Shown one piece after another: positions 2,185 through 32,469 of a DNA stretch of 38,262 nucleotides. The notes under the pieces are model-generated. The model worked only from the letters and a program-made list of their open reading frames with translations, searched no databases and had not been told where the DNA came from. Where the stretch lies: IMG/VR virus record IMGVR_UViG_3300008255_000063, positions 1 to 38,262 of that record; one strand, given 5' to 3'. The DNA is from a virus. Position 1 is the first letter of the stretch. Every line of letters starts with the position of its first letter. The translations under genes were made by a program, and so were the position numbers.

Positions 2185-2211
2185 AGAGTTATTATATATT
2201 AAACTTGACTT

Positions 2212-20014: not shown

Positions 20015-20037
20015 AGTATCCCAAAGACCGGCTGATC

Positions 20038-20166
20038 CTATCCTTCACAGCTTACACAAGTGCTGTCATCCGGACCTTTGTGTATACGTGGCTTTGGCTT
20101 AGGCCCTGGTAGTGGCTCTGGTAAATCAAAAGCATCGACCGCTTTCTCATCTGTTTGTTTTTCCAT
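20038..20166 (-). CDS. Small hypothetical protein (42 aa), below the ORF-track cutoff.
   Basis: My translation from ATG 20166 to TAG 20038..20040 reads MEKQTDEKAVDAFDLPEPLPGPKPKPRIHKGPDDSTCVSCEG. It fills the otherwise empty 182-nt gap between HNH and terL. Confidence 0.4.
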   Translation of the reverse strand: MEKQTDEKAVDAFDLPEPLPGPKPKPRIHKGPDDSTCVSCEG

Positions 20167-20196
20167 AAAACACATAAAACAATTATAGCAAAGTAT

Positions 20197-20598
20197 TTAC
20201 TTATTTTTCTTTAACTCTCGCCAGCCTTTGAGATTACATCTATCAGAACAATATTTTTTCTTTGGTAAAGATATTTTTTTGAAGCATACTTGGCAAACTA
20301 AACCCTCTACTTGCTGGAGTTTTGCATCTGCATCTCTATGATGTTTGGAGCATAGCCATATAACTTGCAACGGTTTTGTATAATCTTCGTGATGAGCCTC
20401 TATACGCCCTTTACAATCTTCATTATTTAAATTGCAAGGTTGTTTTAACAGTAGTCCAGATTTAAGTGCCAAAGTTACCTTATTTCTAGCATCCAATTTA
20501 ATCTTACTCCTCACTCTATTTTTATAGACTCTAAAATATTCCCTACGTTTTAAAGATCTTTTTCTAGCTTTTTCTCCCCACGTTTCTTTATAAGGCAT
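20197..20598 (-). CDS. HNH endonuclease.
   Basis: The motif CKGRIEAHHEDYTKPLQVIWLCSKHHRDADAKL is typical of the phage HNH (C...HH...C..H) fold. Start taken at ATG 20598 (MPYKETW...), because the track start at 20646 would read through the terminator hairpin at 20614..20640. Confidence 0.8.
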   Translation of the reverse strand: MPYKETWGEKARKRSLKRREYFRVYKNRVRSKIKLDARNKVTLALKSGLLLKQPCNLNNEDCKGRIEAHHEDYTKPLQVIWLCSKHHRDADAKLQQVEGLVCQVCFKKISLPKKKYCSDRCNLKGWRELKKNK

Positions 20599-20610
20599 AG
20601 TCAGAATAAT

Positions 20611-20643
20611 AAAGGGAGGTGGAGTATTTGTCCACCTCCCTTT
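20611..20643 (-). terminator. Rho-independent (bidirectional-looking) terminator.
   Basis: aaaGGGAGGTGGAgtatttgTCCACCTCCCttt. A perfect 10-bp stem (20614..20623 with 20631..20640) is flanked by A and T runs. It lies just after the stop of ORF 20650..20844. Confidence 0.8.
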
Positions 20644-20649
20644 CATCCC

Positions 20650-20844
20650 TCAGCGTGGATTGCACTTCGGACAGTAGCAGTAGCCAAGTCTGTTGCAAGG
20701 CTTTATGTAGTCCGTCGGCTCCGGCTGTGGTTGTATCGGTAGCGAGAGATCGAACGAGTATTGCTCATTCTCACGCACCAGTTGATCCAGTGGTTTCGGT
20801 TGCGGAACATTGTCCATCATCTCCTCCTGTGTTGGCTGATCCAT
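20650..20844 (-). CDS. Hypothetical protein with a Cys-rich C-terminus.
   Basis: Start taken at ATG 20844 (MDQPTQEEMMDNV...), which is preceded by AAGGAG 10 nt upstream. The product is 64 aa and ends in CNRLGYCYCPKCNPR. The track start at 20874 is a GTG. Confidence 0.5.
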   Translation of the reverse strand: MDQPTQEEMMDNVPQPKPLDQLVRENEQYSFDLSLPIQPQPEPTDYIKPCNRLGYCYCPKCNPR

Positions 20845-20986
20845 AATCAGTGTACTCCTTACAGACTGTGACACTGTGGATATCCATGTGCATAACTTTA
20901 AATCGCCTAGAGAGTAAGTGGTTTACAAAGTCCGGTACTTTCTTAGGATCCTCCGGTAGGTTAAACTCCAGGCAATATTTAGTCAT
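20771..20986 (-). CDS. Hypothetical protein; its 3' end overlaps the next ORF.
   Basis: 71-aa ORF starting 1 nt after the methyltransferase stop. The first ~45 aa look protein-like. The C-terminal tail (GSANTGGDDGQCSATETTGSTGA) overlaps ORF 20650..20844 in another frame. Confidence 0.4.
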   Translation of the reverse strand: MTKYCLEFNLPEDPKKVPDFVNHLLSRRFKVMHMDIHSVTVCKEYTDYGSANTGGDDGQCSATETTGSTGA

Positions 20987-20987
20987 G

Positions 20988-21695
20988 TTATTTAACTAGA
21001 TCTAGGATAGCACCTATACGATTATAAAAGTGCAAGGACCACTGATCAGCCATCGCCTCAGCAATACCGCTATATGTTTTACTCCTCAGTAAAGCTCGAT
21101 CTTTTGAGGGACCTAGTTTATTTTGACCACTTGCTGTTTGATTTTTCCAGAGTGGTATCATCGGCCGGATCTCACCACAACATCCATACTTACCATGATC
21201 CTCCGGTACTAACTCACCACAGATACATCGATATTCTTTAAATTGAGCGATCTCTACCCAGTGGATGAGCGGTAAGTTTTTTAACCAAAGACACGTCGCT
21301 TTACTTTCCGGATGGCCAAACATATAAGGCTGGAGGATCTGATCTGGTTTACTTATCCTGGATGATATACAGCTCACTGGATTTTCTATAGCGATCATCT
21401 CAATAGGAGCATCCATCAAAGTTTGCACAAACTCTAAAGCCTCCTCAGTTTTCTGAGCTCTCCCAGGCACTCGATTGTTCCAGTGAAGCCCACTCACTGA
21501 TAGATATGTGCAAGGAGGATGAGCGATCATAAGATCCCAATTATTGGAAAGAAACTTAGTAACATCACCCTGGATATGCCACTCCGGATGTCCTCCACTA
21601 CAAGGGAGCAGATCGCAAGAATAAGCCTCGTGGCCAAGAGCTCTAAATGCTTTGCATATTGTCTGTGACTCCTCACATGCTACTAAAACTTTCAT
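20988..21695 (-). CDS. DNA (cytosine-5) methyltransferase-like protein.
   Basis: Start taken at ATG 21695 (MKVLVACEESQ...), giving 235 aa. It has MIAHPPCTYLSVSG (a PC motif IV-like catalytic Cys) and IAIENPV (an ENV motif VI-like). A canonical FxGxG AdoMet motif is not evident. Confidence 0.55.
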   Translation of the reverse strand: MKVLVACEESQTICKAFRALGHEAYSCDLLPCSGGHPEWHIQGDVTKFLSNNWDLMIAHPPCTYLSVSGLHWNNRVPGRAQKTEEALEFVQTLMDAPIEMIAIENPVSCISSRISKPDQILQPYMFGHPESKATCLWLKNLPLIHWVEIAQFKEYRCICGELVPEDHGKYGCCGEIRPMIPLWKNQTASGQNKLGPSKDRALLRSKTYSGIAEAMADQWSLHFYNRIGAILDLVK

Positions 21696-21696
21696 A

Positions 21697-21813
21697 TCAA
21701 ATATGCTTAACGTGATCACCACTACAGGCCTGGCGATGTCTCATAATACCAAGCGAGTGATAGTATTTTTTATCTCTGGTACACCACCAGGAGTAGGATC
21801 CTTTTCTAGCCAT
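21697..21813 (-). CDS. Small Cys/His-containing protein (38 aa), below the ORF-track cutoff.
   Basis: My translation reads MARKGSYSWWCTRDKKYYHSLGIMRHRQACSGDHVKHI. Its stop TGA lies 1 nt before the MTase ATG (tgatATG), so it packs tightly. Confidence 0.4.
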   Translation of the reverse strand: MARKGSYSWWCTRDKKYYHSLGIMRHRQACSGDHVKHI

Positions 21814-21817
21814 TTTT

Positions 21818-21997
21818 TTATTTTTTCTCATAGCAGTATGTTACCCCACAACTACACAACAAACACATCTCATTTTTTGCATCCGTCGTCACCTCTGTTG
21901 ATTGAATAGGACAGCCAATACACCAATGCCAGATCTTTTTAAGCCGGCTATATGGATGAGGATCGTATTCTTTCCCTTTAAAAAACCAATATGCCAT
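21818..21997 (-). CDS. Small Cys-rich (zinc-ribbon-like) protein (59 aa), below the ORF-track cutoff.
   Basis: My translation reads MAYWFFKGKEYDPHPYSRLKKIWHWCIGCPIQSTEVTTDAKNEMCLLCSCGVTYCYEKK. The ATG at 21997 lies 2 nt after the stop of ORF 22000..22653. It contains CxxC plus CxxCxC motifs. Confidence 0.45.
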   Translation of the reverse strand: MAYWFFKGKEYDPHPYSRLKKIWHWCIGCPIQSTEVTTDAKNEMCLLCSCGVTYCYEKK

Positions 21998-21999
21998 AG

Positions 22000-22653
22000 C
22001 TAAATAAGGTTAGGAGTGGCAAAGTCATTACTAAACTGAGCCCACTCGATCTTGTTATAATCCCTCACATCAGCTCTATAGTCCTCCTGGACCGCATCAC
22101 GACGTTCTAGAGCGGTTGCCATACGTTCATTGTATCCGGAGAATAAATCGCCTAGAGTGGTCGTTTTACGCTTACCATTGTCATCCTCACGAGAGACTAG
22201 CTCGCCTCTGAATACTTTTACCTCACAAGGTACGGCCTCACCTCTTAGAGCTTTCCATCCCCAGTTAGTGACGAGCCAATAGCCAGAGTTCTTTTTGCTC
22301 GGAGGTTGCTGGAGATAGTTGAGGTACTTACAAATTGTCGTACGATGCCGGATAGCGTCTGTAGTAGCAAGGGTAGGGACGTGGATCATGTTGGCCTCGG
22401 TAAACGGTACACCCTTGCGGATATTCTCACGGACAGCCTCAGCTACTTTCTTGAGGAGGATGGCACTAAATACATCAGCGTTGTATACAGTCATCTCCAT
22501 AGAGGCCCCACAGTTAGCACAGCACTCTTTTTTAAAGAGCTCTGGATGATTGACTGTTAGTGTCGCTTTAACGTGACCATAGTCCAAGCCATAGGCATTA
22601 ACGATAGTCTGGATAAAAGCGGAGATCTGTGGTTTTTTATATTCTGTTTTCAT
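22000..22653 (-). CDS. Hypothetical protein.
   Basis: 217-aa ORF. Its ATG is preceded by the conserved AAGTAATTGGGATACA motif. It contains CCANCG. Confidence 0.65.
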   Translation of the reverse strand: MKTEYKKPQISAFIQTIVNAYGLDYGHVKATLTVNHPELFKKECCANCGASMEMTVYNADVFSAILLKKVAEAVRENIRKGVPFTEANMIHVPTLATTDAIRHRTTICKYLNYLQQPPSKKNSGYWLVTNWGWKALRGEAVPCEVKVFRGELVSREDDNGKRKTTTLGDLFSGYNERMATALERRDAVQEDYRADVRDYNKIEWAQFSNDFATPNLI

Positions 22654-22670
22654 AGATGTATCCCAATTAC

Positions 22671-22883
22671 TTAATAAACTGTTGACTCGTCGTCCTCCTC
22701 CTCGATCTCAGTTACTACTCCAAACTCCTCGTGTGCTTGGTTGATCTCGTGGAGTCGGTATACCTTTTCCTCTCCGATAAAGCGTATACCCAAAAGGCTG
22801 GCTCCAAAGTAGTCAGCCATCCAGAGAGCGTTACGCATCTTGTGCTTTAGAGGATGAAAGGTTAGTTTTTGAAAGTCTGTCAT
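22671..22883 (-). CDS. Hypothetical protein.
   Basis: 70-aa ORF with a 4-nt overlap with the upstream ORF and an acidic C-terminus. Confidence 0.55.
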   Translation of the reverse strand: MTDFQKLTFHPLKHKMRNALWMADYFGASLLGIRFIGEEKVYRLHEINQAHEEFGVVTEIEEEDDESTVY

Positions 22884-23134
22884 AGGCCTAGTTCTTTTTT
22901 AATATGCTCCATCGCTTTTATCCATCCCTCCTCGTACCCATCACAATGAGAGTTATGTAACCGGAGAGAGTCCATTGTGATACCTGGCTGAGTCTTTCTC
23001 AATGACTTGAGAGCGTATTCTGTCTCTGCAATTCTCATCTTGTGTCCGGTTACTGCAACAGCTTTAATGAGTCTAGCGATAGTGACTGTTGTAGGTTTCT
23101 TTTTGACTACCTTTAAATCGTTTAGCTTGCTCAT
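22880..23134 (-). CDS. Hypothetical protein.
   Basis: 84-aa ORF with 4-nt start/stop overlaps on both sides. Confidence 0.55.
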   Translation of the reverse strand: MSKLNDLKVVKKKPTTVTIARLIKAVAVTGHKMRIAETEYALKSLRKTQPGITMDSLRLHNSHCDGYEEGWIKAMEHIKKELGL

Positions 23135-23349
23135 TTTGTACGTGAAAGATTAGCTTTGATAATAACGTCCAAGTGGTACATCTTGGCTGGACCATGAGGA
23201 GTATCGACCGTCTCAAAATCAAAGCCCTTGAGCATACGAGAGACAGATCCCTTATTGGTTACAGCTATACCATCACGAGTCTTTAAGAGGCCACGTCTGG
23301 CGATCTCTCCGAGGCTGAGTTGTCGTCTTTTTTTAATAGGAGTTTTCAT
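23131..23349 (-). CDS. Hypothetical small basic protein, possibly DNA-binding.
   Basis: 72-aa ORF. The segment LSLGEIARRGLL is HTH-like, and the ORF packs tightly. The function is a guess. Confidence 0.5.
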   Translation of the reverse strand: MKTPIKKRRQLSLGEIARRGLLKTRDGIAVTNKGSVSRMLKGFDFETVDTPHGPAKMYHLDVIIKANLSRTK

Positions 23350-23351
23350 AT

Positions 23352-23765
23352 TTATAAAGTCATTAAACGATTAAGTACATCCTCTGGCGTGTGGCCGTCC
23401 CACTCCGGAGCCGTCTCATAGTTCTTAGCAAAGCTCGTCTGATCCCACAGTGAGAGAGGTAGATGATAGGTTATCTGTTTACCAGGCTCCTCTCCGATCC
23501 CTAGAATAAACATCCCCTCAAACATCGTGCCATCGCTGTGAGACTTAGATCTCCATACAGGGATAGCACAGAGCTCGTCGTGAGTAGTCATTGTCTTGCA
23601 TAATGCAATATACAAGAGCTGTCGATGATCGTAAAGCTCGTCCATAGTGTGATATCCGTCTGACACTACCATCTCATCAAGACCCTCAGCGATTAGTATT
23701 GTATTACCACCGTTACACATCACTCCTAGCGGTTTTGATGATTGAGTTATAGTATATGTTTTCAT
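23352..23765 (-). CDS. Hypothetical protein (WDGH-type C-terminal motif).
   Basis: 137-aa ORF. The SDGYHTMDELYDHR and APEWDGHTPEDVLNRL motifs recall, from memory, a phage family annotated as 'WDGH domain' with unknown function. Confidence 0.55.
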   Translation of the reverse strand: MKTYTITQSSKPLGVMCNGGNTILIAEGLDEMVVSDGYHTMDELYDHRQLLYIALCKTMTTHDELCAIPVWRSKSHSDGTMFEGMFILGIGEEPGKQITYHLPLSLWDQTSFAKNYETAPEWDGHTPEDVLNRLMTL

Positions 23766-23767
23766 AG

Positions 23768-24379
23768 CTATTGAGTTATTTTCTTATAAAGCTCGTACGT
23801 CATCGCCACATCTCCGAGAGCACGATGGAGTGTGACAGCACTCGTATCTATCTTGTGCTCGGAGCAACTCAGACCAAGATTAAAGTGGATACCCTGGATG
23901 CGAGCACTCATCACCCTACCAGCAAAATCAAGATAGCTCTCGCCATACTTAGGGATCATCTTGAGTTTCTTAGCCTTACAATGTACAGCCGTATCGTATG
24001 CCTTAGAGCGGATGATGTCCTCAGTCATCTTTTTGATCTCGTCAGTGTGATTATAGAGATCTGTGGCATAGGCCATAAGAAAAGGGATGTCGAACTTGAG
24101 GCCGTTGTGAGTGATGTTCTTAGGAGCATTGATGAGTAGATCCATAAACTCAGAGAGACACTCAAGAGGATCTCGACCCTCCTTAGCTATGAGCTCGTTT
24201 GTGATCCCATTGATGGCTGTGATCTCCGGAGAGATCTCGACCTTGTTATCCAGTATCCAGTTGCGTTGCTCTATCTCCTCGCCACGTACTATAAAAGCTC
24301 CTATCTCTAGGATCTTAGACTGAGGAGCGACAAAGCCGTTAGCCTCCAAGTCCCAAATAATGATATCGATATTGCTCAT
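23768..24379 (-). CDS. DnaQ-like (DEDDh) 3'-5' exonuclease.
   Basis: 203-aa ORF with Exo I IIIWDLEANGF, Exo II ITHNGLKFDIPFL and Exo III HRALGDVAMTYELY. Confidence 0.85.
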   Translation of the reverse strand: MSNIDIIIWDLEANGFVAPQSKILEIGAFIVRGEEIEQRNWILDNKVEISPEITAINGITNELIAKEGRDPLECLSEFMDLLINAPKNITHNGLKFDIPFLMAYATDLYNHTDEIKKMTEDIIRSKAYDTAVHCKAKKLKMIPKYGESYLDFAGRVMSARIQGIHFNLGLSCSEHKIDTSAVTLHRALGDVAMTYELYKKITQ

Positions 24380-24381
24380 GC

Positions 24382-24549
24382 TTAATAGTTTAAATGTGGT
24401 GAGTTTGAATAATCCTCCGGCTCTACTTCGTGATCTAGGTTGTTGAGCTCTCTGAGCCTCTCCTCCTCACTTAATCGATCGTGTGGTGATTGGTAGCCCT
24501 TTGGCTTTGGTGTAAAGCGAGGTACTGGATCATTATCAAACAGTCCCAT
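24382..24549 (-). CDS. Small hypothetical protein (55 aa), below the ORF-track cutoff.
   Basis: My translation reads MGLFDNDPVPRFTPKPKGYQSPHDRLSEEERLRELNNLDHEVEPEDYSNSPHLNY. The ATG at 24549 overlaps the upstream ORF end by 14 nt. The stop at 24382 lies 2 nt before the exonuclease ATG (24379). It fills a 156-nt gap. Confidence 0.5.
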   Translation of the reverse strand: MGLFDNDPVPRFTPKPKGYQSPHDRLSEEERLRELNNLDHEVEPEDYSNSPHLNY

Positions 24550-24850
24550 GATCGATTGGTTTAAGCGGACTCATAAACTCGACTACAGCATTGTCCATCC
24601 ACTCGATTTTGTAGAGCTTAAACTCTACTCTTTCGGATCCATCCATCGAGTCACTGTTTGTATACTCGATCTCTAAGCGATAGCCTCTGTCGTGTAATTG
24701 CTTTCTAAAGTGTTGAGCGGTTGCAACATCTTTAACCATGTCGACTCGGATACCGTTTTTTTCTAAAAACTGGATACATGCTTGATCTAATGCTCGAGCT
24801 CTCTCCTCACTAATGCGAGAGGCGATCTCTGTGATATCTATACCTGTCAT
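24536..24850 (-). CDS. Hypothetical protein.
   Basis: 104-aa ORF starting 2 nt after the upstream stop. Confidence 0.6.
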   Translation of the reverse strand: MTGIDITEIASRISEERARALDQACIQFLEKNGIRVDMVKDVATAQHFRKQLHDRGYRLEIEYTNSDSMDGSERVEFKLYKIEWMDNAVVEFMSPLKPIDHGTV

Positions 24851-24852
24851 AT

Positions 24853-25143
24853 TTAAAATAACTTATTAAATAACAACTCAATCTCATCGTGCCATCGAGT
24901 TTTATCGATAGATATCCCCTCACCATCTTGATTAACAATCCAATACTTTCCCTCAGTGCTTGACTCGGTAATGGTTATTTTTCCCATATTCATTACTTCA
25001 CTCCCTAACTCTGTAAAGATTTTTTTAAGGCCCTGGATGTAGGTAACCATATTAGCCATATCAGCATCCTCTATATCGTATCCACCTATAATGCTTTTTA
25101 TAGCATCAGTGATTACTATCCTCTCGTGATCTAGTGAGCTCAT
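24853..25143 (-). CDS. Hypothetical protein.
   Basis: Start taken at ATG 25143 (MSSLDHERIV...), giving 96 aa. This forms an ATGA overlap with the stop of ORF 25140..25352. The track start at 25197 would overlap that ORF by 58 nt. Confidence 0.55.
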   Translation of the reverse strand: MSSLDHERIVITDAIKSIIGGYDIEDADMANMVTYIQGLKKIFTELGSEVMNMGKITITESSTEGKYWIVNQDGEGISIDKTRWHDEIELLFNKLF

Positions 25144-25352
25144 AAAAGATTGATAGCTAACAGCACTAATAAAATGATGATCGTGTTTACTTTCCACCAG
25201 TCGAGCTGAGGGTAGTCTGAAAACTCAGAGCGTCGGCAAGTGTCGCAATACTCTTTCTTAGTACCCCAGGGTACGATCGAGCCGGTACACAAAGGATCTG
25301 GACATCGATCCAGGTAGTAGACAGCCAGTGAGTGTTTGATTTTATTGATCAT
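25140..25352 (-). CDS. Small zinc-ribbon-like protein with a C-terminal TM segment.
   Basis: 70-aa ORF with CPDPLC...CDTC followed by WWKVNTIIILLVLLAINLL. There are ATGA overlaps at both ends. Confidence 0.55.
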   Translation of the reverse strand: MINKIKHSLAVYYLDRCPDPLCTGSIVPWGTKKEYCDTCRRSEFSDYPQLDWWKVNTIIILLVLLAINLL

Positions 25353-25510
25353 AGGAGTGTTTGATTGCGTTGCTTGATGTAGATCTCTCGACCGATCTTA
25401 CCGTTAGACCAAGATCTATTGCGACTATATCCGATAATGATCGGGCCAATGATAAGCTGGATTAAGTGGAGGCCACCACCTTTAACCCTCCGGAAGTAAA
25501 CAAACTTCAT
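25349..25510 (-). CDS. Small hydrophobic protein (53 aa), below the ORF-track cutoff.
   Basis: My translation reads MKFVYFRRVKGGGLHLIQLIIGPIIIGYSRNRSWSNGKIGREIYIKQRNQTLL. ATGA start/stop overlaps occur with both neighbours (25507..25510 and 25349..25352). It fills a 154-nt gap. Confidence 0.55.
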   Translation of the reverse strand: MKFVYFRRVKGGGLHLIQLIIGPIIIGYSRNRSWSNGKIGREIYIKQRNQTLL

Positions 25511-26226
25511 AGTATCTCCAGGATATCGCTCATAACTCGATCAGCTCCTCGTCGACCATTTTGAGTAAGCTGTCGGACCCAGGCTCCACGAGTAGGACTC
25601 CACTTGAAAGCGTTGCGACGGAGGATGGAGCGGATCTCATCCTCTGGCTTGCCCTCAAAGATAAAGTGGATCCGATTGTCCTCTTTATCCTCTCGCATGG
25701 TGTAGAGATCAGTCACTACATCCGGACGGAGTGTCATCGACTCTTTACTCTTGAGCTCATCGATGCGTCGCTCTACTCGCTTGATGTTGGCGTTTGAGTT
25801 GCTGAGCATCCAAGTAGGACAAGGCTTTTCTGTATTCTTTCGACGTGACTCAGCGTTCATTGAGAGCATGGTGTCGTGTTTCTTTTTAAGCTGACCGAGT
25901 TGGACTGTGAGCTTTAAGACAGCATCCGGATCATCTGAGCTGATACCACCAGTACCGACCGCCTCAGCTCGCTGTTGAAAGAGGCTCGCTTTCTTTGAGA
26001 GATCAAAGGATTTGCCGATCTTATTAACAGCTCGTCGTCGGTATGCGATGTCTGAGCGGTATGAGTAATGATCTGGCATAACCGGCTGGCCAAAAGGTAT
26101 AGCTTTTAGAGCTGTCATCCCCTCGTCGTGGACTCGAGTCGCCTCGATACTGAGAGTTTCAGACTTAGCGAGAAGTCGCTCCTTTTTGTTCTGTTGCTTT
26201 TGCTCGTAGATGTTTAATGTTTGCAT
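25507..26226 (-). CDS. DUF3560-like protein.
   Basis: 239-aa ORF with an N-terminal coiled coil. The FGQPVMPDHYSYRSDIAYRRR segment and a C-terminal IHFIFEGKPEDEIRSILRRNAFKWSPTRGAWVRQ segment resemble, from memory, the DUF3560 architecture. Its ATG is preceded by the TGGGATAC motif. Confidence 0.5.
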   Translation of the reverse strand: MQTLNIYEQKQQNKKERLLAKSETLSIEATRVHDEGMTALKAIPFGQPVMPDHYSYRSDIAYRRRAVNKIGKSFDLSKKASLFQQRAEAVGTGGISSDDPDAVLKLTVQLGQLKKKHDTMLSMNAESRRKNTEKPCPTWMLSNSNANIKRVERRIDELKSKESMTLRPDVVTDLYTMREDKEDNRIHFIFEGKPEDEIRSILRRNAFKWSPTRGAWVRQLTQNGRRGADRVMSDILEIL

Positions 26227-26260
26227 ATTGTGTATCCCAATTACTTTTAATCTTTATTTA

Positions 26261-26289
26261 AATATAGCACACACTCGCAACCGTTGCAA
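26261..26289 (-). promoter_or_regulatory. Sigma-70-like promoter overlapping a CAACCGTTGCA near-palindrome.
   Basis: The minus strand reads TTGCAA-cggttgcgagtgtgtgc-TATATT, with a 17-nt spacer. The -10 lies 35 nt upstream of ATG 26226. Confidence 0.6.
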
Positions 26290-26291
26290 CT

Positions 26292-26324
26292 AAAAAGCCT
26301 GTGGAAATTGTCCACAGGCTTTTT
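26292..26324 (-). terminator. Rho-independent bidirectional terminator.
   Basis: aaaaAGCCTGTGGAaattgTCCACAGGCTtttt. A perfect 10-bp stem (26296..26305 with 26311..26320) is flanked by A and T runs. It lies 12 nt after the stop of ORF 26336..26689. Confidence 0.85.
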
Positions 26325-26335
26325 ATTAAAGGTTT

Positions 26336-26689
26336 TTATCGGAGGTATCTGACTCCGTAGGCATCGAGAGCTGAGGCTCCGTCATCTGGATCGTTGATGT
26401 TGCCTCGGACTCCTTTCGCTGGAGCGTTCCAGCCAGCCGGCTTGAGGATGTTACCAGTCGCACGTTCTACAAATGAGTGGACTGATCGTTGGCCAAAAGT
26501 GGTAACAATGATTTTCCAGTTCTTAGGACCCTCAGTTACTTCTACCTTTGGATATGCTGTTGGGCTATCCTTGTATGTCTCAGCAACTCGTTGCTTTACT
26601 ACCTCCTCATATCGATTGATCGGATTGACCAGATCACTACCTGTGTACCAACTTGGGAGAGTGACCGTGTTTTGTGTTGTTGTATTCAT
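26336..26689 (-). CDS. Hypothetical protein.
   Basis: 117-aa monocistronic-looking unit between promoter 26722..26750 and terminator 26292..26324. Confidence 0.65.
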   Translation of the reverse strand: MNTTTQNTVTLPSWYTGSDLVNPINRYEEVVKQRVAETYKDSPTAYPKVEVTEGPKNWKIIVTTFGQRSVHSFVERATGNILKPAGWNAPAKGVRGNINDPDDGASALDAYGVRYLR

Positions 26690-26721
26690 GGTGTAATGGC
26701 TTACTTGATTAACGTACCTAC

Positions 26722-26750
26722 ATCATAGCTTATTTATGCAACCGTTGCAA
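26722..26750 (-). promoter_or_regulatory. Sigma-70-like promoter overlapping a CAACCGTTGCA near-palindrome.
   Basis: The minus strand reads TTGCAA-cggttgcataaataagc-TATGAT, with a 17-nt spacer. The -10 lies 33 nt upstream of ATG 26689. Confidence 0.6.
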
Positions 26751-26781
26751 GTATTAGTTATACACAGAATATCCACAGCCT

Positions 26782-27387
26782 TTAATCATCGTCCTCATCA
26801 GCTCCAAAAATCTCATCCAGGATCTCAGCCTCCTCCGGAGTAACGTGATGATGAGTGTGCTTGTCGAGCTTAAACTTCTTGATAATACGGCCTTTCTTTA
26901 CGTCATAGTGTTTGATCGCTTGCATCTTAGTTTTTAGATCAGCGTTTTGTATGAGTAAGAAAGCGTGTTGCTTGTCTACAAACGCATCATTTAAATCTCC
27001 CACCTCCATTACATGATTTATATAGGCCAAAATCTGAGCAGTTTTAAGCAATCTATAAGAAGCGTTAGAGGCTACATCATAGGCTCCAGGGATCTTTAAA
27101 TTAACATTAAACGCTTTAATATAAGCTCGGACACCGTTTCCAAAAAACTCTTGATCAGATGCAAATAACTCACAAAAAAACTTTTCCTGTGGAGAGAGAT
27201 CATCAAAGTTATACTCCTCGGTGTACTGACCTCGAGCAATAAGTGTCTGGATCTTTTCAGTAATATCTTTTTTTTTCCTAGATCCTCTGATTATTTTTTT
27301 AGGTGGTTCCTTATTATCTTTAAGCTCTGGTTTTTTAAGGACCAGCTTTTTTTTAAGTTTCAGTTTTGGTTTGGTAGCCGTTGGCAT
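26782..27387 (-). CDS. Terminase small subunit-like (Terminase_2-type HTH) DNA-binding protein.
   Basis: Start taken at ATG 27387 (MPTATKPKLKLKKK...), giving 201 aa. A Lys-rich N-terminus is followed by EKFFCELFASDQEFFGNGVRAYIKAF...ASNASYRLLKTAQILAYI, which resembles the TerS N-terminal HTH signature. Confidence 0.5.
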   Translation of the reverse strand: MPTATKPKLKLKKKLVLKKPELKDNKEPPKKIIRGSRKKKDITEKIQTLIARGQYTEEYNFDDLSPQEKFFCELFASDQEFFGNGVRAYIKAFNVNLKIPGAYDVASNASYRLLKTAQILAYINHVMEVGDLNDAFVDKQHAFLLIQNADLKTKMQAIKHYDVKKGRIIKKFKLDKHTHHHVTPEEAEILDEIFGADEDDD

Positions 27388-27391
27388 AGGT

Positions 27392-27694
27392 TTAAGTGAC
27401 AGTGATCTGGACCACATCAACTAATTGAGATCCTACCACTACAGATAAGATTACACTATCCTTTGTAACTTTTGTCGAGCGTTTTACCTCCATCCCATAA
27501 ATACGCTGGACCGCATAGTGATTTTGTGTCGTCATATTGAGCGAGCTGAAAGCGACGGATCGCATCAGACTCATATCGTTATGCTTAATCACTGTCGGAC
27601 GGACCGCATACTTACCTTGTATAAAATCCACACACTGAGAAATAGCATCAATGAGCAGATGTCCTTTGGCTAGTTTTACTTTATGTAGTTCCAT
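27392..27694 (-). CDS. Hypothetical protein.
   Basis: 100-aa ORF, the first gene downstream of structured element A. Confidence 0.6.
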   Translation of the reverse strand: MELHKVKLAKGHLLIDAISQCVDFIQGKYAVRPTVIKHNDMSLMRSVAFSSLNMTTQNHYAVQRIYGMEVKRSTKVTKDSVILSVVVGSQLVDVVQITVT

Positions 27695-27722
27695 AAATAT
27701 TTTTCTTAAATGTGATCACCTT

Positions 27723-27827
27723 TCGACAGCTCTAGTCCCAGCCTCCCCACCTTTCTGTAAAGGCGACAGAGGGAGGTTACTAGCTTGTGGTGGAGTAGAG
27801 CTGTCGAGAGTGGACCACCCACTCTCT
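27723..27827 (-). ncRNA. Structured intergenic element A (candidate cis-regulatory RNA).
   Basis: It lies in the 137-nt gap 27695..27831. A 12-bp stem TCGACAGCTCTA (27723..27734) pairs with TAGAGCTGTCGA (27796..27807) and encloses 61 nt with nested CCTCCC/GGGAGG and CCTTT/AAAGG pairings. An adjacent 8-bp hairpin pairs GAGAGTGG (27806..27813) with CCACTCTC (27819..27826). It shares GGACCACC(C)ACTCTCT with element B. Confidence 0.5.
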
Positions 27828-27831
27828 GATA

Positions 27832-28050
27832 TTAGCCCTTATCGTCGTCAGCATCCGGTAATGCTGGCTGGATCGACTGTACTCCGAGCTCGATCATCTC
27901 CTTGAGATTTTCGACAACCTCCTGGATCTTACTAGGATCCTCTCCGTGTACGAGCTCCACCTTAATCTCTAAGGTGTGGATCGTCTCATTGTTGTCTGTG
28001 ACCTTGCTCTTGGCATTTACGCCTTTGAGTATTCCGTTTAGTCTGACCAT
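27832..28050 (-). CDS. Hypothetical protein.
   Basis: Start taken at ATG 28050 (MVRLNGILKG...), giving 72 aa. It overlaps the upstream stop by 13 nt. The track start at 28071 is also possible. Confidence 0.55.
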   Translation of the reverse strand: MVRLNGILKGVNAKSKVTDNNETIHTLEIKVELVHGEDPSKIQEVVENLKEMIELGVQSIQPALPDADDDKG

Positions 28051-28286
28051 GTAACCGCTTTGACAGCCCACATCTGAGCTGACTGTGCCTCAGTGATAGC
28101 GACAGAGCAGAGTCTTTTTACTTCCGGAGATTCTGACTTCTTACGCATATCATCAAGACGATCGATCACTTTGGCATAGGCTGTTTTGAGGATAAATACT
28201 TCCTCATTTTGACCAGGATTAAAAGCGAGTCCTACCGCTTTCTCACCAAAAGTCAGCTCCCTATCCCTTTTTGTATTTCCATCCAT
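28038..28286 (-). CDS. Small helical protein and candidate anti-defence sponge (Acb2/Tad1-hairpin-like; unverified).
   Basis: 82-aa ORF with VGLAFNPGQNEEVFILKTAYAKVIDRL followed by RLCSVAITEAQSAQMWAVKAVT. From memory, this FNP(S/G)...A(I/L)T..E.A.MWAVKA signature belongs to a widespread small phage family. Confidence 0.6.
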   Translation of the reverse strand: MDGNTKRDRELTFGEKAVGLAFNPGQNEEVFILKTAYAKVIDRLDDMRKKSESPEVKRLCSVAITEAQSAQMWAVKAVTWSD

Positions 28287-28318
28287 AATCGATACTTTAA
28301 CTAATAATCCCAGTTAAA

Positions 28319-28410
28319 CACTGGAGGGAGAGTAGTGATGTAAGCCATTACTTTAACCGGAGGACCTGTCGGCCAGACCCCTTATCCGGACCACCACTCT
28401 CTCGCCAGTG
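28319..28410 (-). ncRNA. Structured intergenic element B (candidate cis-regulatory RNA), related to element A.
   Basis: It lies in the 176-nt gap 28287..28462. A long-range stem pairs CACTGG-agg-GAGAGTAGTG (28319..28337) with CACCACTCTC-tcg-CCAGTG (28392..28410). An inner CCGGA/TCCGG stem is enclosed. GGACCACCACTCTCT lies at 28388..28402. Confidence 0.5.
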
Positions 28411-28462
28411 TATTACTGACGGAGCTGTGAGGCCTCCTGTAGCGATTCTACGTGCTTAAACG

Positions 28463-29050
28463 CTAGATATGCCATAAAGCCATCTGTTCTTGTGGTTTGC
28501 CATATACGGAGTCCGGCTCTACTTGTTCTAGAGGAGGTAGCTCAAACGCTGACTTGTAGCTTTCGCTTTCTGTCTTAGTAAGCTCAAGCTGAGGGTATCG
28601 ACCAGACACTATGAGTAGTGCCTCCCTCCTACACATCGCCATACGAGCGAGGATATCCTTTCGGAGTTGCTCGTGGTTTTTTACGATCTTTTGATTTTCC
28701 ATCTGAGTGTTAGCAGATCCAGTCTTCATTCGAGGCCGGTAGTACTCGAGAGTAATATCAGTCTCCTGGAGAGCTGTCTGGAACTTCCTCCACTTCTGAT
28801 CAATCGATCGGAGCATCTCCTCGCTTGTATGTCCGAGAGCTATCTTGCTACTTGTGTCCTCAATAGGCTCGAGGTTTTCAAAGATGCAGATATTACCCTC
28901 CTTAAACATACTCCCAGGGTTCATGTGTACTCCATGCTCAGCGAGACGGATTGTCCGGAGACATTCGTTAATCTCTTTTTGCTGGCTCATCTTAAAGATG
29001 TGGATCTTGATCCCTTTCCTTTCTGGTACTTGCTGTGCTGTGTCGTTCAT
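28463..29050 (-). CDS. Hypothetical protein.
   Basis: 195-aa ORF starting 2 nt after the upstream stop. Confidence 0.65.
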   Translation of the reverse strand: MNDTAQQVPERKGIKIHIFKMSQQKEINECLRTIRLAEHGVHMNPGSMFKEGNICIFENLEPIEDTSSKIALGHTSEEMLRSIDQKWRKFQTALQETDITLEYYRPRMKTGSANTQMENQKIVKNHEQLRKDILARMAMCRREALLIVSGRYPQLELTKTESESYKSAFELPPLEQVEPDSVYGKPQEQMALWHI

Positions 29051-29052
29051 AA

Positions 29053-29331
29053 CTATTTTAAGAACTTAACCCGATCACTAAAACTGTGCTCGAGTACTGC
29101 TAGTAATACTGCTCCCATGAAGTACTCTCCCTCGTGTAAGATTTGATCCATCTTACCCTGGAGATCCTCCATTGAGCCGGCCATCACATTGATGGTGCGA
29201 TGCTCTCCAATGTCCTCGTACTGTGGAGGCTTTTCTGGATCCTCCTCGTCGTTTTCTACAATCCCGATATAGAGAGTGTAGACCTTTGGCTTTGTGTAGT
29301 CCAGAGGGTTAAATGTTTTTTGTTCATCCAT
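29053..29331 (-). CDS. Hypothetical protein.
   Basis: 92-aa ORF starting 3 nt after the KH gene stop. Confidence 0.6.
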   Translation of the reverse strand: MDEQKTFNPLDYTKPKVYTLYIGIVENDEEDPEKPPQYEDIGEHRTINVMAGSMEDLQGKMDQILHEGEYFMGAVLLAVLEHSFSDRVKFLK

Positions 29332-29334
29332 AAG

Positions 29335-29613
29335 CTACTTGGTTTTATATTCTGGAACATCCAACACGAGAGATGCTCTCATGTCGTTACGCTTTCCAAC
29401 TCCGGCTAGTAATGCTCGGAGAGACTTGATTGTCGTCCCTCCTTTCCCTATCAGTGATCCAGCATCAATGTCGGACGGCTTTACTGTAAACAGTACGCCT
29501 CGTGCATCAATACTAGGACGGACTGAGAGTTTCTCCGGCTCGTCGAGTAGAGGCTTGATAGTTGATACTATCCAGTCTCGTACGAGCTCGATCTTTCGTC
29601 TCTGATCTTCCAT
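29335..29613 (-). CDS. KH-domain RNA-binding protein (YlqC/UPF0109-like).
   Basis: Start taken at ATG 29613 (MEDQRRKIELVRDWIVSTIKPLLDEPEKLSV...), giving 92 aa. The GxxG loop in SLIGKGGTTIKSLRALL and the overall length and layout match the small bacterial KH proteins. The 169-aa track version reads through a terminator and promoter region from a GTG. Confidence 0.75.
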   Translation of the reverse strand: MEDQRRKIELVRDWIVSTIKPLLDEPEKLSVRPSIDARGVLFTVKPSDIDAGSLIGKGGTTIKSLRALLAGVGKRNDMRASLVLDVPEYKTK

Positions 29614-29644
29614 AGCGATTAAGTTAAATAATAAAGCTGACAGC

Positions 29645-29674
29645 AAAAAGGCCCTCAGCCGAGGAGCCCTTTTA
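29645..29674 (-). terminator. Terminator-like hairpin in the leader of the early operon (attenuator candidate).
   Basis: The minus strand reads GGCTCCTC-ggct-GAGGGCC-TTTTT. The stem is 7 bp with one bulged A (50..56 with 61..68). It is flanked by aaaaa on one side and tttt on the other, and lies 32 nt upstream of the KH ATG. Confidence 0.55.
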
Positions 29675-29780
29675 CTATACCAGCATATGCTCTCTCTCCA
29701 CAGAGAGCAAAAAATGTACCAGATACGGCCAACGTAAGAGTCATGTTCAAACTCAAAACATTTTTTGTAAAAAATTGCAT
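29655..29780 (-). CDS. Leader peptide / small hydrophobic ORF (41 aa) ending inside the attenuator hairpin.
   Basis: My codon-by-codon translation reads MQFFTKNVLSLNMTLTLAVSGTFFALCGERAYAGIVKGLLG. The ATG at 29780 lies 3 nt after a TGGGATAC motif. The stop TGA (29655..29657) spans the loop/3'-arm junction of hairpin 29650..29668. Confidence 0.45.
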   Translation of the reverse strand: MQFFTKNVLSLNMTLTLAVSGTFFALCGERAYAGIVKGLLG

Positions 29781-29821
29781 ACCGTATCCCATACCCCAAC
29801 AGTATATACCCAGCTCTATAC

Positions 29822-29876
29822 ACAACGGTTGCACTTATCCCCACTTTTTGTTAATGTAGTAATGCAACCGTTGCAG
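29822..29876. promoter_or_regulatory. Divergent control region with two oppositely oriented copies of the CAACCGTTG near-palindrome.
   Basis: ACAACGGTTGCA lies at 29822..29833 and TGCAACCGTTGCAG at 29863..29876, with centres 42 bp apart. The minus-strand reading of the second is CTGCAA-N17-TAACAA. A possible plus-strand promoter is TTGCAC (29829..29834)-N17-TAATGT (29852..29857). Confidence 0.5.
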
Positions 29877-29928
29877 ATAGTGTATACTAGAGCTTGGAGG
29901 TAAACATTAAAAACCTAACCTCCAAACT

Positions 29929-30513
29929 ATGAAATCTGATAAACATAAAGTAGCAACGATCATTTTAATCGTTAAAGTTCTGACCTTATTACTAGCTATA
30001 AGCCTTGATGGTGGCGATCCAGTACACTACGTAGCCTCTCCGGAGATCTACACGTTTACACAACACGCTGAGGCTTCAACCGAGGCGACCATGTCTGATG
30101 AGGAGCTCTGTGGACTGGATGCTATCGTTTGCGAAAATGAGGAGCCGGTAGAGAAAGCCTTAAAAGAGATCCCTCACAAGACAGCTAAGACGGCTGAGTT
30201 GATCAAGTACCTATACGACTATGCTGAGGGTACTGATGTAAATCCAGAAATTGTCTCACGTACGATTTATTGTGAGTCTATGTGGTACAACATCAAATCT
30301 GGTTACTTCAATGAGCAAGGTATCCAGGAGGAGTCTTATGGCCTCTCTCAAATCCACTTACCAAACCACCCTCACATTACTAAAGAACAGGCTTTGGACC
30401 CTTACTTTGCTCTCCGGTTTATTGTCGATCGATGGCACGATGTCAAATGGTACGGCTACGATCGAGAGCGAGAAGTATGCACCAACTCAATCAAAGGCTA
30501 CTGGATCGATTAA
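29929..30513 (+). CDS. Membrane-anchored lytic transglycosylase (SLT-like).
   Basis: 194-aa ORF with an N-terminal TM segment (VATIILIVKVLTLLLAISL). The segment YCESMWYNIKSGYFNEQGIQEESYGLSQIH matches the SLT catalytic ES ... GL(M/S)QI pattern. Confidence 0.7.
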   Translation: MKSDKHKVATIILIVKVLTLLLAISLDGGDPVHYVASPEIYTFTQHAEASTEATMSDEELCGLDAIVCENEEPVEKALKEIPHKTAKTAELIKYLYDYAEGTDVNPEIVSRTIYCESMWYNIKSGYFNEQGIQEESYGLSQIHLPNHPHITKEQALDPYFALRFIVDRWHDVKWYGYDREREVCTNSIKGYWID

Positions 30514-30536
30514 CAAAATCTAATGGGATACACACT

Positions 30537-31079
30537 ATGAAAAGTAAAAAAAACACTATACCGCTAAAGCTCAGAGATGAGTTATCTAAGGATCAAGAGT
30601 ACGAGTACTGCTGTATAACCGGCAAGCGGAGTACTCCGGAGGATCCTATTGAGTGGCATCATAACTTAAAGTTTGCTGGCTCAAACGTCCAGGAGCGATT
30701 TTGTATCTTGCCTATTCTACAGTCAATCCACTTTAAAGCCGATAACATCAAAGTCAGAGAGACGCTGGATCGAGCGATGATCTATCGTGATACCGAGAAT
30801 AAGCTCTTTGATCCAATGGGATATGGTAAAGCGGTAAACTGGAGACAGCGAGAGATCTACCTCAACTCTATACACGGACCATACACTCCTCCAGTACCGG
30901 AGCCAAAGTCAGCGACTCGTGCTCTACCGGAAAAGAAAGAGGGATCCGGAGTTGAGCTAACTAAGCAAGAGTGGGCCATTATCTACAGCGTAAAGCGGAA
31001 ATTGGAGGAGGCACACCCTGGCCACCCTTTCTCAGCTCGTGAGGTTTTGTCGCACGTTATACACAGTTTTGAGGACTAA
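30537..31079 (+). CDS. Hypothetical protein with an HNH/DUF968-like Cys/His motif.
   Basis: Start taken at ATG 30537 (MKSKKNTIPLK...), giving 180 aa. It is preceded by TGGGATACACACT. The motif is CCITGKRSTPEDPIEWHHNLKFAGSNVQERFCILPILQSIH. The nuclease assignment is weak. Confidence 0.6.
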   Translation: MKSKKNTIPLKLRDELSKDQEYEYCCITGKRSTPEDPIEWHHNLKFAGSNVQERFCILPILQSIHFKADNIKVRETLDRAMIYRDTENKLFDPMGYGKAVNWRQREIYLNSIHGPYTPPVPEPKSATRALPEKKEGSGVELTKQEWAIIYSVKRKLEEAHPGHPFSAREVLSHVIHSFED

Positions 31080-31142
31080 ATCAGATTTTTCCGGATGTTC
31101 TATCTTTTTTCTTTTTTTAGTCCTTATTATTACTATTAGCCC

Positions 31143-31339
31143 TGTGGATACTGTGGAAAAATTAAAAATCTCTTTATTTTTAAGTATTATTCCGCTCCTT
31201 TCTACTGTGAATTAAAACTTCATTAAGTGTTCATTAAGCTGTGTATAGGGACTCTCTCTGAGTTATCCCCAAAATTGTCCACAGGCTACCAACATCCTGT
31301 CCGGATCTTGTACGTCATCTTATACGCTCACTATCCACA
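31143..31339. other. Cluster of DnaA-box-like 9-mers next to AT-rich tracts (candidate replication origin).
   Basis: The boxes are TGTGGATAC (31143..31151, rc GTATCCACA), TGTGGAAAA (31152..31160, rc TTTTCCACA), TTATCCCCA (31263..31271), TTGTCCACA (31275..31283) and CTATCCACA (31331..31339). Each is 8/9 to TTATCCACA. AT-rich runs lie at 31081..31140 and 31157..31195. Confidence 0.5.
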
Positions 31340-31364
31340 GGATATACACACCCTCGAAACAAAG

Positions 31365-31392
31365 AAAAAGCCGGACAAAAGTCCGGCTTTTT
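31365..31392. terminator. Bidirectional rho-independent terminator between the convergent modules.
   Basis: AAAAAGCCGGAC-aaaa-GTCCGGCTTTTT is perfectly symmetric. It lies between the plus-strand gene ending at 31079 and the minus-strand holin ending at 31437. Confidence 0.9.
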
Positions 31393-31436
31393 CTGTAGTT
31401 TCGTATTGGGATACACACTACCGTCGGTACTTACTT

Positions 31437-31670
31437 TTAAGGACCGTACCGACGACCTCCTAATGGTTTAACGTCACCTTTCATGTAACGGATGATGTAG
31501 CCTACAGCATTGATCGCTAGAGTCACCACAAGGATGATAGTAGTGATTGCTTGAGCTACTGAGTCTGGTGTAAGACCATACTTAGTAAGATCTACACCAA
31601 ACAGCATAACGAGGGTAAACACCATACCGATCTGGCGGAGGAGTTGTTCTCGTGAAAAGTTTTCAAACAT
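31437..31670 (-). CDS. Holin (putative).
   Basis: 77-aa ORF with two hydrophobic segments (IGMVFTLVMLFGV and AITTIILVVTLAINAVGYII) and a basic C-terminus. It lies immediately downstream of the amidase gene. Confidence 0.6.
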   Translation of the reverse strand: MFENFSREQLLRQIGMVFTLVMLFGVDLTKYGLTPDSVAQAITTIILVVTLAINAVGYIIRYMKGDVKPLGGRRYGP

Positions 31671-32382: not shown

Positions 32383-32469
32383 ATTTTTGTGCTCGAGCGT
32401 CGTCTGAGTCCTTACAAGAGGCCCATATAACAACTAACACGATGATTATCCCAATAACAAATGTCATAA

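Follow-up and report, generated by a model that had tools for sequence, protein, structure and literature searches.

Does a short word that recurs directly ahead of start codons in a phage genome recruit ribosomes, or is it the target of some other factor? The question is raised by a stretch of viral DNA, IMGVR_UViG_3300008255_000063, positions 1 to 38,262 (38,262 nucleotides, hereafter the window), which has the appearance of a complete phage genome (about 38 kb) and in which 48 genes were called. An earlier note on this DNA had described an 8-mer, TGGGATAC (hereafter the box), immediately upstream of several start codons, where a Shine-Dalgarno (SD) sequence would be, and had proposed a non-SD translation-initiation element as one of its possible roles. 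We think it likely that the box works as a regulatory word at the RNA level and not as a general ribosome-binding site (RBS). More specifically, we give even chances to the reading that it is the target of a phage antisense RNA, anchored at a transcript 3' end, which would pair with the initiation regions of selected first cistrons. What has been observed, and what this reading is built on, are the sequences themselves, their conservation, the hairpin context of one copy, co-variation between genomes and duplex energies.

The box and its relation to ribosome binding

An exhaustive scan of both strands returned seven exact copies of the box against 0.97 expected, a number that none of 100 dinucleotide shuffles reached, and the copies, coordinates and contexts listed previously were recovered exactly. 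Five copies end 1-5 nt ahead of an ATG on the same strand: those at 20016 (followed by t-ATG of terL), 22658 (atct-ATG), 26232 (acaat-ATG) and 29784 (ggt-ATG) on the minus strand, and that at 30524 (acact-ATG) on the plus strand. At least four copies lie at this distance from an annotated same-strand start (P about 3e-9). The other two are on the plus strand, one at 31407 without an ATG (the 'orphan') and one at 3022, antisense within the coding sequence (CDS) 2212..4098; the latter has no conserved counterpart in relatives and is best read as a chance occurrence. Six of the seven copies fall in the non-coding 7.7% of the window (P about 1e-6). The sense orientation of the word, its position adjoining start codons and its dissimilarity to AGGAGG are all borne out by these contexts and statistics. 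Also real are the 16-mer shared by 22657..22672 and 26231..26246 and the 13-mer shared by 30524..30536 and 31407..31419. One-mismatch variants of the box were not enriched as a class (27 against 24.8). Maximal-order Markov k-mer enrichment and enrichment of upstream 7-mers proved too crude to rank the motif, and a possible seventh site, ATTGGGATcttATG at about 21534..21541, considered as a new methyltransferase start, was dropped because a PHROG match covers the longer open reading frame (ORF).

Nearly all genes of the window lie on the minus strand, and clear plus-strand coding is confined to 29929..31079. The genes bearing a box are terL, a DUF3560/primase-like gene, an ORF for an unknown 217-aa protein, an HNH-like ORF and a 41-codon 'leader ORF', which stands ahead of the gene for a KhpA-type KH protein. 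Upstream of most of the genes the sequence is A/T-rich, with no AGGAGG-like word, no SD and no box.

Relatives of the window were reached through terL homologues at 97, 91, 76, 75 and 75% identity (contigs of 37-39 kb), through amidase homologues, which led to the lysis, origin and early parts of the same genomes and to one new genome, and through a DNA pattern search, which gave the lysis, origin and early part of the relative at 97%. When metagenomes were scanned with the amidase, no additional close members came to light. Three of the genomes carry paired names (L110/L228, L112/L227 and L113/L226). Across six related genomes with terL 75-97% identical, the box is kept ahead of orthologous starts, as the earlier note had required, at terL, the DUF3560 gene and the amidase, and also at the early leader; in a relative with 85-90% identical DNA it is kept even where the flanks or the downstream gene differ. 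No such word was found in about 45 terL relatives at about 50% identity or in three amidase relatives at 46-48%, and the system is therefore limited to a narrow clade of seven known genomes, including the window. The two best conserved copies, that of the early leader and the 'orphan', have no conserved start codon, which a purely ribosome-binding role would not account for.

The possibility that the box nevertheless recruits the 30S subunit to first cistrons, either as a weak SD through its GGGA or through another ribosomal RNA (rRNA) segment of an unusual host, has several points in its favour. At the main sites 5-9 nt separate its GGG core from the ATG, it favours genes that follow promoters or gaps over coupled genes, and the genome is otherwise without SD sequences. 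In L112 and L115 a terminator and an extended -10 (TGcTATAGT and TGcTACAAT, respectively) are followed 8-10 nt later by the terL box, which therefore makes up nearly the entire predicted terL 5' untranslated region (UTR) of 10-13 nt. Against this, the box is carried by only 5-7 of about 48 genes, and most genes do not have it at the 5-10 nt spacing expected of an SD; it stands 1-5 nt from starts, and its variants up to 8-18 nt. It also falls short of at least 4-5 nt of complementarity to the CCUCC core of the 16S rRNA 3' tail, the tail of the host being taken as canonical. The best duplex of box regions with the canonical anti-SD GGAUCACCUCCUUUCU is -4.1 to -4.4 kcal/mol (GGGA:UCCU with one G-U), whereas an extended SD of L115, AAAGGAGGUGAUC, reaches -27.6 kcal/mol with the same partner. 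A perfect 13-nt extended SD, AAAGGAGGTGATC, stands ahead of the gene preceding terL in L112 (about 9560..9585) and L115 (about 9600..9625), genomes which are otherwise SD-less; its presence suggests a canonical host anti-SD, with which the box pairs at only about -4 kcal/mol. Moreover, RBS function leaves the conserved ATAC part of the box and the leader and hairpin copies without start codon unexplained, and a one-base insertion variant, described below, shifts genome-wide along with the hairpin copy, which is unexpected for a host rRNA partner. We regard this explanation as quite unlikely, and a general role of the box as a substitute SD is not supported, since most genes lack it and the two top conserved copies have no conserved start codon. 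The window also has SD-like words (AAAGGTGATC, AAAGGAG and GAGAGGT) upstream of the ATGs of genes 27392..27694, 14808..15578 and 5688..5927, at 18-34 nt, a distance too great for ordinary SD spacing.

A predicted complementary hairpin at the late-transcript 3' end

It had been noted correctly that the 'orphan' has no ATG. What had been overlooked is its reverse complement, a partner of the box displayed in a hairpin loop near the late terminator. The 'orphan' (31407..31419, plus strand) is the complement of a segment of the late, minus strand that lies in a hairpin, hp2 (31393..31422, minus strand; GGUAGU-GUGU-(AUCCCA)-AUAC-gaa-ACUAC, loop in brackets), the proposed regulator. Its loop together with the 5' arm GUGU forms an anti-box, GUGUAUCCCAAUAC, to which the box with its usual flanking letters is exactly complementary. 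Directly 5' of hp2 is a further hairpin, hp1 (31421..31455, minus strand), which spans the stop codon of a holin-like gene, the last of the late genes (31437..31670), and was predicted at this place, with differing sequences, in all six genomes folded. On the other side a terminator scan placed a bidirectional intrinsic terminator (31356..31394, minus strand) with an A-run, a GCCGGAC/GUCCGGC stem and a U-run, conserved in the seven genomes with compensatory stem changes. Three stem-loops thus close the late transcript (31455..31356 in the window), and in every genome the order is the same: stop codon of the last late gene, hp1, hp2, A-run, terminator stem, U-run. Since the terminator is bidirectional, hp2 falls inside the late transcript and outside plus-strand transcripts. 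In all seven genomes the anti-box lies on the late strand in a hairpin loop, past the last late stop codon and 15-19 nt upstream of the terminator, and this conserved complement supports the antisense reading.

In the six genomes folded, hp2 is a hairpin with CCC in the loop, and its stems differ yet pair (GUAG/CUAC, GGAA/UUCC, GAGUG/CACUC); RNAalifold on seven sequences places AUCCCA in a hexaloop. The element of L234 is identical in sequence to that of the window although its terminator stem differs, and L228 and L229 have the same AUCCCA loop, a GUAG/CUAC outer stem and shorter spacers. The remaining forms are GAGUG-(UAUCCCAAAU)-CACUC in L115, GUAG-UGUA-(AUCCCAAA)-UAUA-c-CUAC in L227 and GGAA-c-UUGU-(AAUCCC)-ACAA-UUCC in L226.

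Loop and boxes change together in two genomes. L113/L226 has the loop variant GUAAUCCC and boxes of the GGGATTAC type, with no GGGATAC in 18.5 kb, and its hp2 carries CUUGUAAUCCCAC, the complement of its variant box including the flanks. The leader of L113 begins with TGGGATTAAC and has the box TGGGATTA, while its intergenic boxes are GGGATTACAA, 8 nt ahead of an ATG, and GTGGGATTA, 13 nt ahead of an ATG; copies at 4831 and 9655 lie within homologous coding sequence and were not counted. L112/L227 is a partial case: its hp2 has GUGUAAUCCCAAAU, and the box GGGATTACAC precedes an ATG by 3 nt. In the five remaining genomes hp2 reads GUGUAUCCCAA and the boxes are GGGATAC(AC).

The complementarity to hp2 extends past the 8-mer on either side, differently from site to site, and amounts in the window to 14, 13, 11, 10 and 9 nt at individual sites and 8 nt at the leader; in L229 it reaches 16 nt. 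The longest match is upstream of the HNH-like ORF 30537..31079, where 14 nt (30524..30537, plus strand) are perfectly complementary up to the A of the ATG (-25.7 kcal/mol); this site is also present in L110/L228, L229, where the 16 nt occur, and L234. At the DUF3560/primase-like gene 25507..26226 the box ATTGGGATACACA (26229..26241, minus strand) matches over 13 nt (-22.3 kcal/mol). A promoter TTGCAA-17-TGcTATATT is predicted to start transcription about 15 nt upstream of this box, which is kept in L001, L110 and L229. Ahead of ORF 22000..22653 the box ATTGGGATACA (22657..22667, minus strand) matches over 11 nt (-21.0 kcal/mol) and is retained in L001 despite the different N-terminus of the downstream gene there. 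The terL box TTGGGATAC (20016..20024, minus strand), 1 nt ahead of the ATG, matches over 9 nt (-15.3 kcal/mol). The word upstream of terL is TTGGGATACtATG in the window and L001, AGGGATACactATG in L110 and aaaGGGATACcATG in L115, which keep the box, and is degenerate in L112 (TGGGATCactATG) and L113 (GAGATACactcgatATG). Two weaker relatives of the box had been named in the earlier note, and their positions are given here in corrected form. The first, TATTGGGATA (32446..32455, minus strand), between the gene for a 1647-aa protein and the amidase gene, matches over 10 nt (-18.1 kcal/mol) and is conserved upstream of the amidase in four genomes, L228, L229 and L115 among them. The second, TGGGATTA (28305..28312, minus strand), 18 nt ahead of the Acb2/Tad1-like gene 28038..28286, is kept in L001 and spelled like the variant of L113, and its membership of the set is doubtful.

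The median duplex energy of hp2 with 48 initiation regions was -8.4 kcal/mol. Three regions reached -20 kcal/mol or better, which none of 300 shuffled regulators achieved, and four reached -18 kcal/mol or better, as did 2 of 300 shuffled regulators; this test depends on the original finding of the motif and is not independent of it. It does bring out that the individual sites correspond to different parts of a single longer sequence, a pattern typical of seed pairing.

On the antisense reading, the 3' end of the late (minus-strand) transcript would present the C-rich hp2 loop, either within the late mRNA or as a processed fragment of about 70-100 nt. This RNA would pair with the boxes directly upstream of the starts of the HNH-like ORF, the DUF3560/primase-like gene, ORF 22000, terL and the amidase, mostly first cistrons that need de novo ribosome recruitment, and also with the early leader RNA at its 5' end. 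The paired stretch would run from position -1 to about -15, in one case taking in the AU of the AUG, and would occlude the initiation region, so that translation would be repressed, and decay possibly triggered, as late transcripts accumulate. The reading is compatible with a weak SD role; the G-run of the box may double as an SD-like contact with the ribosome for which the C-rich loop would compete.

Several points weigh against this reading. It presumes that the late-strand 3' end is made and is stable or processed, that hp2 would pair with the boxes in vivo, and that the effect would be repression rather than activation. As a fold, hp2 is about equally good on both strands and its energy does not choose between them. 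The core duplex would be short at terL and at the leader (8-9 nt), and the leader and terL boxes of L112 fit the loop of their own genome only with a one-base bulge. Target sets vary by genome, the HNH-like site being missing from L115, L226 and L227. The clade is small, seven known genomes of which two carry a variant loop, and co-variation of the 'orphan' with the boxes would also be expected if one factor read the same word everywhere. Lastly, a logic in which late transcription shuts off early genes is incomplete, because terL and the amidase gene are themselves late genes.

One such factor could be a protein. The box would then be the RNA site of a trans-acting protein controlling translation or attenuation, and the hairpin copy an extra site or decoy. 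Candidates for this protein are the KhpA-like KH protein of the phage, some other phage-encoded protein, or a factor of the host such as a CsrA-type GGA binder. The sense orientation of the box and its position adjoining starts suit this, as do its GGA, found at times in weak hairpin loops, and the concerted shift of its variants within one genome. The KH gene (PF13083) is first after the box-bearing leader in every clade genome, an arrangement that would suit autoregulation through leader and attenuator. However, the hairpin copy is outside the plus-strand transcript and, on the late strand, has the wrong sense for a reader of UGGGAUAC. A link between KH gene and box also fails outside the clade: all clade genomes have both, but in the distant relatives L230-L232 KH genes occupy the same position without box, leader or hp2. 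A single KH domain reads about 4 nt, which counts against a protein operator as well, and the matching of varied sub-windows of a longer sequence favours base pairing over a fixed protein motif. A protein operator thus appears to us unlikely.

A further idea is that the boxes are relics of recombination, junction sequences of modular exchange, such as the 13-bp repeats around the HNH-like cassette 30524..31419, with no present function. Identical 13-mers do flank the HNH-like gene, the origin region and the terminator, and at 22658 the homology of the window to L001 ends precisely where the box stands. On the other hand, the hairpin and leader copies are kept despite unalignable flanks, and in genomes without the copy at the HNH site, while the concerted change of variants and the structured context of the hairpin copy would not be expected of relics. 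We disfavour this idea and hold it to be highly improbable.

The early leader, promoters and origin

The leader of the early operon begins with the box GUAUGGGAUACGG (29782..29794, minus strand), 9-11 nt past the -10 TATATACT (29801..29808), and TATGGGAT is invariant at its 5' end in the seven genomes. An alignment of the early divergent region shows as invariant blocks GCAACCGTTG (twice), a DnaA-box-like 9-mer and the -10 TATATACT; these are followed by TATGGGAT(AC) 9-11 nt after the -10, then TTTTTTAC, CTCTACGTTG, a terminator-like hairpin and the KH gene. An ATG follows the box only in the window and L001; L110 has AAG, and in L112, L113, L115 and L229 it is absent. Because its ATG is not conserved, the 'leader ORF' is probably not a gene, and the leader is probably a non-coding RNA of about 125 nt that begins with the box.

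Within the leader, the 5' box is predicted by RNAalifold to form a helix, P1, with a complementary internal segment, CCGUAUCUGGUAC (29716..29728, minus strand). Over the alignment P1 has 85.7% of its cells paired, while controls with the partners shifted by 1-3 columns had 23-50%. Covariation is modest, with double changes in three pairs, and L115 breaks the helix; we treat P1 as no more than plausible. Ahead of the KH gene (29335..29613) lies the terminator-like hairpin, or attenuator (29640..29672, minus strand), found in six genomes with compensatory changes. On the antisense reading the internal helix and the attenuator may also play a part, as may processing of the late 3' end. A search for local hairpins that might sequester each box found a strong downstream complement in the leader alone. 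Further invariant blocks, UUUUUUAC and CUCUACGUUG, lie between the 5' box and the internal complement (leader 29640..29795, minus strand), and the leader by itself may be a structured RNA with a cis-regulatory function. In Rfam the leader region gave only noise at E up to 10. Searches of IMG/VR for the 16-mer AAGTAATTGGGATACA and for TATATACT-N8-12-TATGGGAT returned almost only chance matches, and one look-alike, L164/L186, is an unrelated high-GC phage.

Since the box lies 8-11 nt past the -10, at the transcription start, of the early leftward promoter and of the late promoters of L112 and L115, it might instead act on DNA, as a promoter-proximal or start-site element or as the site of a DNA-binding regulator, for example one tied to the DnaA-box or GCAACCGTTGC sites described below. 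Two further points agree with this: the hairpin copy is about 50 nt from a cluster of DnaA-box-like words, and the box loosely resembles TGTGGATAA. Its distance from a -10 varies, though, from 0-5 nt at the hairpin copy through 9-11 nt at the leader to about 22 nt at 26232, with no usable -10 at 22658 and 30524. Neither strict sense orientation with tight coupling to ATG nor the compensatory stems that flank the hairpin copy would be expected of a DNA site, and the insertion variant GGGATTAC fits no DnaA box. We therefore judge a DNA-level role very unlikely. The box was also considered, and rejected, as a -10 or T4-late-like promoter of leaderless mRNAs, since with a spacing of 1-5 nt the terL start would fall within the ORF, and as a Bacteroidota-type promoter (TAnnTTTG, -7 element), since the spacing between TA and box is not fixed. 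Promoters conserved here belong to extended -10 types, such as TGcTATAAT and TATATACT.

The late promoter of the window has the extended -10 TGCTATAAT (20182..20190, minus strand), and between it and terL sits an ORF for a 42-aa CxxC protein (MEKQTDEK...CVSCEG; 20038..20166, minus strand), present also in L001 and L110. This ORF is missing from L112 and L115, where the promoter abuts the box and terL.

DnaA-box-like 9-mers (TGTGGATAC, TGTGGAAAA, TGTGGATAG, TGTGGACAA and TGGGGATAA) are clustered at 31143..31339 of the window, within a non-coding stretch of about 330 nt that separates the late terminator from the end of the HNH-like gene. The same place in L226-L229 and L115 holds arrays of TGTGGATAA or TGTGCATAAC together with conserved TTTTAATTCACAGTA and TTTTTAATTTTTCCACAGTATCCACAG, and this stretch is probably the replication origin. 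The near-palindrome GCAACCGTTGC occurs at 29864..29874, 29822..29832, 26738..26748 and 26277..26287, and its 10-mer core AACCGTTGCA has five copies against 0.02 expected. Three or four early promoters have a -35 (TTGCAA) that overlaps with this word, and each has a DnaA-box-like 9-mer just upstream (29843, 26777/26766 and 26316); the near-palindrome looks like the operator of some regulator. A rightward early promoter (29864..29931, plus strand) with TATACT, a 7-nt interval and an invariant GGAGGT at the predicted transcript 5' end is found in six genomes. In the window this GGAGGT can pair with ACCTCC just ahead of the ATG at 29929, and the SD-like word is about 28 nt from the start.

Two other words are over-represented in the window. 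CCCTCAGC has 12 copies against 0.84 expected, on both strands and mostly in CDS (e.g. 3575, 10630, 15073, 20647, 29652 and 34781), one of them in the stem of the leader attenuator, and TCCGGA is about 3.5-fold over-represented, with about 53 sites.

The early genes further include those for the Acb2/Tad1-like protein, a DEDD exonuclease, a WDGH protein and a DNA methyltransferase. The Acb2/Tad1-like gene (28038..28286, minus strand; Pfam E = 1.4e-9) belongs to the anti-defence genes of the early operon, where L113 has an extra Tad2-like protein (1903..2415). The 1647-aa protein (32470..37413, minus strand) has homologues with weak Zeta_toxin-like Pfam matches in relatives, and weak LPD38 matches as well in distant ones; it is possibly a large virion-associated multi-domain protein. 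The window scan found no tRNAs, and no lysogeny or immunity module was identified.

Likeness to known systems and significance

Antisense control with this geometry has a precedent in the c4 RNA of phages P1 and P7. According to PMC12197685, citing Citron and Schuster (1990), loops of c4 pair with short boxes at the ribosome-binding site, and loops and target boxes co-vary between P1 and P7. The elements described here resemble c4 and its icd/ant targets, as that source presents them, in having complementary sequences exposed in loops, targets at the ribosome-binding region of the phage's own mRNA, matched differences of regulator and target between related phages, and a regulator taken from a longer transcript (PMC12197685). 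They differ from it in having no sequence or structure homology, in the placing of the regulator at the late-operon 3' end by the terminator, whereas c4 is upstream of its target in the same operon, and in having 5-7 dispersed targets on both strands instead of a single operon. In silico, loop sequences complementary to boxes of the RBS region over 8-16 nt were found here, as were matched changes of regulator and target, in two variant genomes of which L227/L112 is a partial case.

Phage P4 offers a second comparison. The P4 CI RNA studied by Deho, Ghisotti and colleagues reportedly carries seqA, seqB and seqC boxes and confers immunity through premature transcription termination, RNA-RNA pairing within or with the leader controlling expression downstream. 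The early operon described here may likewise have a leader with mutually complementary short boxes ahead of a terminator-like hairpin; the resemblance is confined to the early leader, most boxes here being at start codons. Small RNAs derived from 3' UTRs, such as CpxQ and SroC, have a single-stranded or loop seed a few nt upstream of their own Rho-independent terminator and several trans targets, in most cases at initiation regions. The anti-box is likewise just upstream of the late terminator on the transcribed strand, but its targets would be the phage's own genes, and the host may lack Hfq. With the SD the box shares the character of a purine- and G-rich sense-strand word a few nt ahead of starts, while differing in its restriction to a minority of genes, its conserved positions beyond anti-SD pairing and its conserved startless copies. 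With T4 RegA/RegB operators and the GGA sites of CsrA/RsmA, a single factor acts in trans on short RNA words that overlap the initiation regions of certain genes. The box is similar in overlapping the initiation regions of some genes, but its complementary hairpin copy has no counterpart there, and no homologue of RegA, RegB or CsrA was found among the proteins scanned. In Rfam no family reached its gathering score anywhere in the window (the presence of a c4 model in the library was not separately checked), and the element is therefore not a member of a described family.

Weak hints on the host come from more distant relatives by terL or amidase, which occur both in metagenome-assembled genomes that bear the labels Candidatus Shapirobacteria and Gracilibacteria and in groundwater fractions of 0.1 µm. 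The wider phage family (L116, L238-L248, cluster of P0044) is found in such Candidatus Gracilibacteria/Shapirobacteria genomes and in 0.1-µm groundwater filtrates. These hints point to Patescibacteria (candidate phyla radiation, CPR) as hosts of the wider family, which is not established for the window itself, and a literature search on SD use in Patescibacteria found nothing useful.

A more far-reaching version of the antisense reading, which we hold to be rather doubtful, is that a small phage, possibly of an ultra-small patescibacterial host, runs a genome-wide regulon from the 3' end of its late operon. The boxes would then be the sole ribosome-recruiting words of de novo cistrons in a genome otherwise without SD sequences, and the C-rich loop an anti-SD mimic titrating them and pairing as well with the early leader at its 5' end. 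Early, replication, packaging and lysis genes would be under RNA-only temporal control, and the co-evolution of regulator and boxes would amount to a lineage-specific code.

For annotation, these observations carry the warning that repeated words ahead of starts in SD-poor genomes need not be ribosome-binding sites, and a further consequence is that the 'leader ORF' is probably a non-coding RNA. The loop of 6 nt and the box of 8 nt are a compact pair that comes with natural compensatory variants. If the antisense reading is true, it would describe a multi-target, trans-acting antisense circuit, found from sequence alone, in a phage of 38 kb that looks lytic and belongs to an uncultivated lineage. 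It would provide a phage case of a regulator anchored in the late-operon 3' UTR, and would widen control of the c4/CI/sar type from single immunity operons to a dispersed regulon that takes in terminase, replication and lysis.

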